Below, one piece after another: positions 8,376 to 9,590 of a DNA stretch of 64,000 nucleotides. The stretch spans positions 456 to 64,455 of the forward strand of contig CAZKCT010000005.1 in assembly GCA_964551545.1 (NCBI GenBank), read 5' to 3'. The notes below the pieces were generated by a model. The model saw only the letters and a list, made by a program, of their open reading frames with translations, ran no database searches and was not told the DNA's origin. Source of the DNA: an uncultured Piscirickettsiaceae bacterium (lineage in GTDB: Bacteria; Pseudomonadota; Gammaproteobacteria; GCF-002020875). Position 1 is the first letter of the stretch, and each line of letters begins with the position of its first letter. The translations under genes and the position numbers were made by a program.

Positions 8376-9590
8376 ATGAAACTACCCGCTTTTATCTACC
8401 GCTTCTCTTCACCCAAACACTTCTACTCGATGTCCGGGAAGCTGTTACCGTGGCTTGCCAGTCTCTCTCTGGCGTTACTCCTGATTGGGCTCTATGTCGG
8501 CTTTGGTATCGCACCCACTCACTCGGAGCAGGGAGAGAGCTACCGCATTATCTACCTCCATGTCCCCGCCGCCTCCAATTCGATGATGATCTATATGGTC
8601 ATGGCCACCTCTGGGGCAATCTTTCTGATCTGGAGAATCAAACTGGCCGACACCATTGCCGCTGCCTCTGCACCCATTGGTGCTGCTTTCACCTTCCTTG
8701 CATTGCTGACTGGATCTATCTGGGGCAAGCCCACTTGGGGAACCTGGTGGCAGTGGGATGCACGCCTCACCTCAGAACTGATTCTGCTCTTTCTCTACTT
8801 CGGTTACATGGCCCTGCGCGCCGCGATGGATGACCGTCAGAATGCAGCACGCGCCAGTGCGGTACTGGCACTGGTCGGGGTCGTCAATATTCCGATCATC
8901 CACTTCTCCGTAGAGTGGTGGAACACCCTCCACCAAGGGGCCACTGTCTCCAAGATTGCCAAGCCCTCTATGGAGGCGACCATGCTCACCTCCATGCTGA
9001 CCATGCTACTGGCACTCTCCCTCTTCTTTGCACTGGTCACTCTGATCCGCGCCCGCGGGTTGGCCCTGCAGCAAGACTCACGCGGAAAATGGGTCGAAGA
9101 GCTGCCTGCAGTCCGACAAAACCCTCTTCACTGGATCGCCCCACTCCTGGCCATTGGCTGGATCGGCTACCATGCCGCAACCACAGTCACTACACCCATT
9201 CTGGCACCCTCCCAGCTAGAGGCGACCCAGTCACCGATTGAGTTCCGTGGTCACGTCGAGGCCATTCACTCTGAAGGGAACCAACACCGGATTGAGGTGT
9301 CTGACGATCAACAAAAGGTTACGGTTCTATTCCATGGAAAACTTCCGAGAGAACTTCGCACCCACTGGGGGGCACACGTCAAAGGCACAGTTGCCTCAGA
9401 GACGACAGGTGTCACAGTGAGCGCCCAGTCAATTGCCGCACTCAATATTCGTGATCACAGCGGTTATATCCTTGCCGCCTACGGGATTGCACTGATCACC
9501 CTCCTGCTGAATCTGATGGGCGCGCTGCGCACTGCGCGTGATGCACGTCAAGCCATTGCCCGTCGAATTCGACAAGAATCTAACCACTGA
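8376..9590 (+). CDS. ccmC: CcmC heme exporter fused to a CcmE-like OB-fold segment and a CcmD-like C-terminal TM/basic tail
   Basis: N-terminal ~250 aa carry the [12 protein letters not shown] tryptophan-rich CcmC motif. Then ~100 aa resemble the CcmE OB domain (FRGHVEA...[17 protein letters not shown]...VKGTV, compare FRLGGLVA...[21 protein letters not shown] in ccmE downstream). Final ~45 aa are a hydrophobic helix plus [18 protein letters not shown], like CcmD. Continuous ORF in the provided track; Met at 8376 chosen as start. Confidence 0.7.

Follow-up and report, generated by a model that had tools for sequence, protein, structure and literature searches.

Gene fusion is known in cytochrome c biogenesis from CcsBA of System II in Helicobacter, which is a natural fusion protein. 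In System I of Escherichia coli, CcmH is itself a natural fusion of CcmH and CcmI (PMC10457321, PMC6204919). The E. coli structures place the C-terminus of CcmC in the cytoplasm, with CcmE crossing the membrane from inside to outside and CcmD from outside to inside (PMC10457321). Residues R73, D101 and E105 of CcmE are reported to dock on CcmC, and R104 co-varies with CcmC (PMC6204919). CcmD is needed to release holo-CcmE (PMC6204919, PMC9084895), and its role in System I is still called enigmatic (PMC6204919). Here, a 64,000-nucleotide (64-kb) stretch of DNA from an uncultured Piscirickettsiaceae bacterium (contig CAZKCT010000005.1, hereafter the window) is analysed, in which a single gene of a System I operon encodes, from N- to C-terminus, a complete CcmC, an extra transmembrane (TM) helix, a five-stranded oligonucleotide/oligosaccharide-binding (OB) barrel homologous to CcmE, and a CcmD helix with a basic tail (Table 1).

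Domain architecture of the fused protein

An earlier, sequence-only reading of the window had described a CcmC core with the WWD motif whose open reading frame (ORF) runs on through a TM helix and a CcmE-like OB domain into a CcmD-like helix that bears a basic tail. This architecture is borne out by the scan with hidden Markov models that the reading had proposed, in which CcmC and CcmD exceed the curated cut-offs and CcmE stays sub-threshold in the window protein, and by AlphaFold 2 (AF2) models. The CcmC core is recognized by TIGR01191 over residues 48-227 (251.1 bits, cut-off 186) and by PF01578 over residues 16-186 (137 bits, cut-off 29.9), and it ends in a conserved cytoplasmic C-terminal helix, in which the invariant stretch extends to residue 239. 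In a Foldseek comparison with the PDB, the best matches of the CcmC model are E. coli CcmC chains 8ce1_C and 7f02_C (TM-score 0.80, 53% identity). A six-TM CcmC-like fold is supported by 237 columns aligned to 8ce1_C, the WWD region of the model having a low predicted local distance difference test score (pLDDT).

The CcmD module matches PF04995 at residues 361-401 with 28.9 bits (31.8 bits when the extension is scanned alone; gathering threshold 25.6) and TIGR03141 with 26.6-27.2 bits (cut-off 25.95), and AF2 models it with a long helix at residues 362-403. CcmD matches are found in 24 of 27 extensions of the family, the best at 1.5e-12. The module keeps the position of ccmD between the CcmC core and ccmE, and is not a small independent polypeptide (~40-100 amino acids (aa)). 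The absence of a separate ccmD, also pointed out from the sequence alone, holds: no CcmD-like ORF besides the C-terminus of the fusion was found in the 64-kb window, and no separate ccmD in the related operons. A genuine ccmE lies next door, as had been stated.

Distribution and integrity of the fusion

A search with the full-length protein retrieved P0003, which is identical to it, together with at least 35 clusters (388-418 aa) at 95-100% query coverage and 46-83% identity, all from uncultured Gammaproteobacteria and drawn from NCBI, JGI, ENA and Logan assemblies; ordinary CcmCs (~245 aa) cover only the first 60% of the query. Queries with the extension alone and with an extension profile against an index of 5.8 billion proteins returned fragments and one standalone long CcmD, full-length fusions being missed by the word-based step. 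With HMMER and a narrow three-sequence profile, no extension domain was found outside the fusion family (six representatives, all of the same family).

The ccm loci of related taxa were compared in a survey with one genome per species of the Genome Taxonomy Database (GTDB). The fusion is uninterrupted in all 12 species genomes (labelled Piscirickettsiaceae, Thiotrichales or Methylophaga), and the gene order ccmA-ccmB-fusion-ccmE-ccmF is the same in all of them. One close relative, P0011, is 'Candidatus Thiopontia autotrophica'. A canonical CcmE with the haem-binding (LAKHDENY-type) motif is encoded 3' of the fusion in the 11 relatives whose ccmE was translated, and a PF03100 ccmE is also found 3' of the fusion in L019 and L022. 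The distant members P0029, P0037 and P0082 occupy the same operon position, with a separate ccmE after P0029 and P0082; the P0037 contig stops inside the gene downstream of the fusion. In the 1.3-Mb contig of one distant member, ccmGHI follow.

A frameshift, including one at 9050-9150, where the sequence-only reading had seen a need for resequencing, is excluded, because a relative at ~79% protein identity is colinear with the window without an insertion or deletion over 1218 nt; the uninterrupted gene in the 12 species genomes agrees with this. All segments of the protein evolve under purifying selection, which is looser in the extension than in the core. Pairwise ratios of nonsynonymous to synonymous substitution rates (dN/dS) are lowest in the CcmC core (~0.06) and higher in CcmD (0.17), the barrel (~0.23) and the extra TM helix (0.27), values that are rough as dS is near saturation.

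In one related species, the fused gene is disrupted in at least two different ways in metagenome and metatranscriptome assemblies. In the first, codon 196, which lies in CcmC between TM5 and TM6, is an in-frame TAG (L001:2134-2136, L002 and L003); the equivalent codon is AAG in the window (8961-8963), and the intact allele was compared at L014:3893-3895. The second (L004 and L005, ~125-150) comprises ~9 substitutions within 20 nt, which turn the invariant EWWNTLHQG into VAG*SLHKG. The intact allele, from the metagenome-assembled genome L014, has two differences from the TAG allele in 5471 nt. The disrupted alleles could represent real inactivation at strain level or a split that is tolerated, or else an artefact of assembly.

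The middle domain and its relationship to CcmE

Homology of the middle domain to CcmE is solid on family-level evidence. The sequence-only reading had it that the segment resembles CcmE, and a significant score is not obtained with the window protein by itself (residues 285-343, 15.6 bits, E 0.02; 17.8 bits, E 0.004 with the extension scanned alone; PF03100 gathering threshold 24.6), but is obtained with the family. PF03100 matches 20 of the 27 family extensions at E<=0.01 (best 1.1e-10), and the P0022-type extension, which is 40% identical to that of the window and alignable throughout, scores 39.5 bits across positions 4-90 of the 99-position profile. When the family profile is run against PDB sequences, E. 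coli CcmE comes out on top (8ce8_E and 1sr3_A, E 2.3e-5), and alignment of the family with the canonical CcmEs of the same genomes by hhalign gives 96.7% probability (E 3.7e-10, 83 columns).

Structural models are in agreement with this placement. The AF2 barrel has five strands in residues 287-356 (pLDDT 90-97 in the domain-only model), and the TM7 and barrel portion of the full model matches full-length E. coli CcmE (8ce8_E) over 138 columns with Foldseek. Full-length CcmE (TM helix plus barrel) is Foldseek rank 7, and generic OB folds score equally well or better, so the fold alone is not diagnostic of CcmE. The extensions also have weak, sub-threshold matches to DUF4131 and tRNA_anti-codon, in keeping with a shared OB clan. 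The orientation of TM7 would be from cytoplasm to periplasm, as follows from the cytoplasmic C-terminus of CcmC (PMC10457321).

The homologous region spans TPILAPSQL (NLFYSPxQV in CcmE) to SIAAL (EVLAK in CcmE) and stops just before the HDENY haem tail, in line with the lack of a LAKHDENY context remarked on earlier. The barrel is without the flexible C-terminal tail and without the H(or C)xxxY motif for covalent haem binding. In the alignment, the CcmE docking residues R73, D101 and E105 are replaced by A, R and T, D101 to R being a charge reversal. Arginine is kept at the equivalent of R104 in the main clade (LRTHWG) and lost in the P0032-37 subgroup. Motifs that are conserved in the barrel across 46-100% identity are G292, F319-x-G321, WGA and AALNxRD. 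The middle domain is CcmE-derived, but two features that define a CcmE chaperone, the HxxxY tail and the docking residues, are missing from it. A simple decoy at the same CcmC site, one of the functions that had been suggested for it, is disfavoured by the lack of conservation at R73, D101 and E105.

At the periplasmic end of TM7, a histidine (His266, 9171-9173, in GYHAATT) is present in most family members, not all. Its position is sometimes moved by one residue, or is occupied by Q, Y or L. The histidine could be a ligand or may be no more than interfacial.

The CcmC core and the junction with CcmD

His62 and His186 are invariant across the 35 aligned family members, and are taken here to be the equivalents of His60 and His184 of E. 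coli CcmC (the numbering agrees with PMC10457321). The invariant positions of the WWD motif in the family are W116, G117, K118, P119, W121, G122, W124, W125, W127 and D128. At positions 120 and 126, the main fused clade has T120 and Q126, in contrast to M and V in unfused relatives (KPMWGTWWVWD). The CcmE-docking loop of CcmC (D47, Q49 and Q50 in E. coli; 8517-8552 in the window) is also altered in the main fused clade, as compared with PxDYQQGESYR in unfused relatives, with E. coli D47, Y48 and Q49 changed to H, S and E. The P0044/82 group has the unfused-type APxDYQQGESYR and KPMWGTWWVWD, and the P0032-37 group has the unfused type in loop 1 only. As the docking loop and the WWD motif are both changed in the main fused clade, the comparison suggests that CcmC has become adapted, on its periplasmic face, to the built-in barrel; at the present sampling this is a correlation only.

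At the junction of barrel and CcmD, the P0044 tail, YMGGYAFFVW, is an exact match to E. coli CcmD residues 14-22. Through P0044, RDHSGY of the window aligns with CcmD residues 14-20, which puts His361, just C-terminal to the barrel, opposite Tyr17 of CcmD and not His130 of CcmE, and Tyr364 opposite Phe20. Across the 35 aligned members, only His or Tyr occurs at position 361. In E. coli, Tyr17 of CcmD is periplasmic, its Y17C variant crosslinks haem, and His or Met is found there in other classes (PMC12077264). The N-out/C-in orientation of CcmD would be forced by the periplasmic barrel together with the cytoplasmic C-terminus of CcmC (PMC10457321). The possibility that RDHSGY is a CcmE-type HxxxY motif was considered and rejected, as the spacing is HxxY and alignment via P0044 puts these residues in the CcmD module.

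Origin of the fused gene

The standalone long CcmD, P0132, is a 167-aa protein whose N-terminal TM helix is followed by a periplasmic domain and then by a strong CcmD module (50 bits). No Pfam model, that of CcmE included, matches the periplasmic domain, in which there are two cysteines (CKPNVATC). The extension of the fused P0044/P0082 group is a homologue of P0132. Ordinary ccmD genes of 56-90 aa accompany the close unfused CcmCs. In a neighbour-joining tree of CcmC cores, which is rough, the window clade and P0021-31 form one group with P0032-37 nearby, and P0044/82 fall together with the CcmC encoded next to the standalone long CcmD.

Since a long CcmD exists on its own elsewhere, the fused unit is best understood as a CcmD that was first enlarged and afterwards joined to CcmC. 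The built-in CcmD of the sequence-only reading is thus present at the C-terminus, but in refined form, the enlarged CcmD including the TM anchor and the CcmE-derived barrel. CcmD would first have gained a TM helix and a barrel segment captured from CcmE, and the enlarged ccmD may then have been joined to ccmC through loss of the overlapping stop codon, possibly more than once. Enlargement of CcmD probably came first and fusion to ccmC later, with P0132 a likely evolutionary intermediate. The order of CcmC, CcmE-like domain and CcmD (C-E'-D) is the only topologically consistent one, because the C-terminus of CcmC is cytoplasmic, CcmE runs outwards through the membrane and CcmD inwards. The barrels may have more than one origin, because the P0044/P0132 subgroup gives no CcmE match.

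Proposed role of the built-in barrel

The favoured interpretation, held with modest confidence, is that the protein is a single-chain CcmC-CcmD module in which the periplasmic N-terminus of CcmD is replaced by an anchored CcmE barrel, and that this barrel is a stationary platform modulating the docking and release of CcmE. Haem would still be received at the WWD site of CcmC (H62/H186), and would then be taken up covalently by the free, mobile CcmE. The built-in barrel would most likely stand on the periplasmic face beside the WWD site, where it would shape the docking of mobile CcmE and aid its release, the step that needs CcmD; His361, the equivalent of CcmD Tyr17, may be an auxiliary haem contact. 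The barrel itself cannot shuttle, because it lacks the HxxxY tail and R73/D101/E105 and is tethered at both ends, and a role as a mobile shuttle to CcmF/H appears structurally implausible for a domain held in the membrane on either side by CcmC and CcmD.

Several observations weigh against the platform interpretation. The CcmE score of the window protein itself is under the Pfam threshold, a search by fold alone ranks generic OB folds (aminoacyl-tRNA synthetases, replication protein A) ahead of CcmE, and the P0044/P0132 subgroup has no detectable CcmE signal. His361 is not universal: the main clade has His at this position, and two subgroups, P0032-37 and P0044/82, have Tyr. Y17 of E. coli CcmD sits away from the WWD site (PMC12077264), so the role of the barrel might be unrelated to CcmE docking. 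The window covers 64 kb, and a second ccmD or ccmC may be present elsewhere in the genome.

The barrel might instead be an intramolecular mimic of CcmE that competes with the barrel of mobile CcmE for one and the same CcmC surface and, after haem attachment and ATP hydrolysis, displaces holo-CcmE; release by CcmD would in this case work through molecular mimicry. Such an ejector would fit a CcmE-derived barrel fused precisely to CcmD, the subunit that holo-CcmE release depends on (PMC6204919, PMC9084895), and would also fit the docking loop of CcmC being altered in the same clade that retains the R104 equivalent, as R104 co-varies with Q49 of CcmC and has been linked to release. The changes R73 to A, D101 to R and E105 to T leave none of the docking residues conserved, however, and the R104 equivalent is lost in P0032-37, which makes this an unlikely explanation. 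Taken more broadly, the idea that CcmD uses the barrel as a functional CcmE mimic to displace holo-CcmE, or that haem is held transiently via His361, is likewise doubtful.

Another possibility is that the barrel, with His361, Tyr364 and possibly His266, binds haem, covalently or not, as a second stationary station in a relay from the WWD site to CcmE. The junction motif AALN[IV]RDHxxY is superficially like LAKHDENY of CcmE, the residue at 361 is His or Tyr throughout the alignment, and the equivalent position in CcmD, Y17, crosslinks haem as a Cys variant (PMC12077264). Yet the spacing is HxxY instead of HxxxY, the residues fall in the CcmD homology region and not in a flexible CcmE tail, two subgroups have Tyr, which is unable to form the CcmE-type covalent bond, in place of His, and a genuine CcmE is always retained; a haem station is accordingly regarded as quite improbable.

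The same low standing is given to the barrel as a passive linker or stabilizer, that is, a folded spacer for 1:1 stoichiometry and membrane insertion that has no part in haem or CcmE handling. The barrel does evolve ~4x faster than the CcmC core (dN/dS 0.23 versus 0.06), haem tail and docking residues are lost, one subgroup is without CcmE signal, and the weak matches to other membrane-anchored OB domains, DUF4131 among them, mark the fold as generic. A mere bridge between CcmC and CcmD is nevertheless hard to reconcile with a long CcmD that is also found unfused, with barrel motifs kept over 46-100% identity and with dN/dS well under 1. Finally, an artefact or pseudogene, in which a frameshift or lost stop joined ccmC, another ORF and ccmD, would find a parallel in the in-frame TAG (L001-L003) and the mutated stretch with a stop (L004 and L005) of one related population, but is effectively refuted by the same architecture in at least 35 clusters from four sources (NCBI, JGI, ENA and Logan) and 12 species genomes, where an error shared by all assemblies is implausible across platforms, by gapless in-frame alignment and purifying selection in all segments, and by the intact L014 allele that is 2/5471 nt from the TAG allele.

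Gene neighbourhood

Table 1. Features of the fused gene and its operon in the window, and the standalone long CcmD of other loci.
Feature	Coordinates	Strand	Evidence or remark
Whole fused gene, CcmC-TM7-CcmE-like OB domain-CcmD	8376-9590	+	404 aa plus stop; ATG 8376, TGA 9588-9590
CcmC core, residues 1-246, six TM helices	8376-9113	+	TIGR01191 251.1 bits; PF01578 E 7e-40
His62, haem axial ligand equivalent	8559-8561	+	Invariant column in family alignment
WWD motif, residues 116-128	8721-8759	+	Read from sequence
His186, second haem ligand equivalent, in EWWNTLHQG	8931-8933	+	Invariant column in family alignment
Extra TM helix TM7, residues ~250-271, membrane anchor of CcmE-like domain	9123-9188	+	AF2 helix 250-269, pLDDT >80
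CcmE-derived OB barrel, residues 273-357	9192-9446	+	hhalign, profile versus PDB, PF03100 in family, AF2
CcmD module, residues 358-404, TM helix and basic cytoplasmic tail	9447-9587	+	PF04995, TIGR03141
His361, junction motif AALN[IV]RDHxxY	9456-9458	+	Aligns with E. coli CcmD Tyr17, bridged by P0044
ccmA	6859-7518	+	PF00005; upstream operon partner of fusion
ccmB	7515-8201	+	PF03379, 274 bits; upstream operon partner of fusion
ccmE, separate and canonical, 171 aa, LAKHDENY	9626-10141	+	NF009729 217 bits; PF03100 E 9.5e-35
ccmF, 645 aa	10138-12075	+	PF16327 395 bits and PF01578; downstream partner
Standalone long CcmD P0132	L023:3838-4341; L024:2970-3473	n/a	ATGA overlap with stop of ordinary 251-aa ccmC; before ccmE

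The 174-nt spacer between ccmB and the fused gene contains three tandem octamers, CTTTGCG(T/C), at 8310-8333, 43 nt 5' of the fusion ATG. The spacer shows no sequence conservation in the relative L001, and part of it in the window was flagged as a weak terminator-like hairpin at chance level. A scan of 6600-12300 for promoters and terminators gave nothing beyond shuffled expectation. Directly 5' of ccmA, a 154-aa ORF (6260-6724) has one N-terminal hydrophobic helix followed by a coiled-coil-like part, with sub-threshold Pfam matches only (DUF948 and DUF5798).

On the 3' side of ccmF, a zinc-type alcohol dehydrogenase/quinone oxidoreductase gene (12075-13081) is found in place of ccmG/H/I; in the more distant relative L019, ccmG, ccmH and ccmI are directly 3' of ccmF. 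As ccmG/H/I are not next to ccmF in the window, the thiol-redox and lyase module would be encoded elsewhere in the genome. Three tandem genes for small monohaem c-type cytochromes (133-160 aa, one CXXCH each, Pfam Cytochrom_C/Cytochrome_CBB3) lie on the minus strand at 17329-18638, and are likely Ccm clients. The sequence-only reading had spoken of a genome with many c-type cytochromes; in the window this is weakly borne out, by these three genes and a few single-CXXCH ORFs.

Significance and comparison with known systems

No description of a CcmC-CcmE-like-CcmD fusion, of a 'CcmE-like' domain or of a long CcmD bearing an OB domain was found in the literature, where the only relevant remark found was that a fusion of archaeal ccmD to ccmA/B/C is unlikely (PMC9084895). 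The fusion variant of System I is thus new to the literature as searched, and its components themselves are classic System I parts. Public annotations of these proteins are inconsistent (heme ABC transporter permease, CcsA, CcmE, or 'CcmD, partial'), and because pipelines name the fusion proteins so variously, genomes of the fusion clade would be scored as ccmD-less.

The variant, carried by uncultured marine sulfur bacteria related to Thiotrichales and "Ca. Thiopontia", could help to explain what CcmD does. Release of holo-CcmE from CcmABCD is an open mechanistic question on which the fusion bears. The fusion is independent support for an N-out/C-in CcmD that lies close to the C-terminus of CcmC, and suggests that CcmD has, at its periplasmic end, a functional site open to elaboration. 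A natural single-chain construct is also useful for structural and complementation work. If the barrel were indeed a CcmE mimic, this lineage would make explicit the long-enigmatic function that CcmD has in release, and CcmC-E'-CcmD would offer a handle of fixed stoichiometry and topology for trapping the haem hand-off.

Among described systems, the window protein shares with E. coli CcmC/CcmD/CcmE (7F02-7F04, 8CE1 and 8CE8) the CcmC core with WWD and two histidines at 53% identity, and with E. coli System I more widely the CcmD TM helix with basic cytoplasmic tail, the ccmABC(D)EF context and a separate HDENY CcmE. Three separate polypeptides in E. coli, however, correspond here to one C-E'-D chain plus a free CcmE. 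In place of the amphipathic N-terminus of CcmD (residues 1-16) there is a TM-anchored OB barrel, and the docking loop D47-Y48-Q49 of CcmC is H-S-E in the main fused clade. The CcmE family PF03100, including its CxxxY variants (archaea and Desulfovibrio), likewise has an N-terminal TM anchor followed by a periplasmic OB barrel, whereas the fusion barrel is without the flexible tail or H/CxxxY and has its C-terminus tethered by CcmD. The N-terminal DUF4131 of ComEC (PF13567) resembles the extension in its TM-OB-TM layout, with weak sub-threshold matches in 4 of 27 members (best 9e-6), but these scores are below the gathering threshold and weaker than those of CcmE, and there is no ComEC context; a shared OB-fold clan is the most likely explanation. 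The standalone long CcmD P0132 is alike in its succession of TM helix, periplasmic domain and CcmD module, and in its place between ccmC and ccmE, and differs in being unfused to CcmC, with an ATGA overlap, in having no CcmE Pfam match and in carrying CKPNVATC. CcmH and CcsBA are precedents for neighbouring maturation genes fusing into one functional polypeptide. In those cases two different partners were joined, whereas here a degenerate CcmE paralogue is embedded between CcmC and CcmD.

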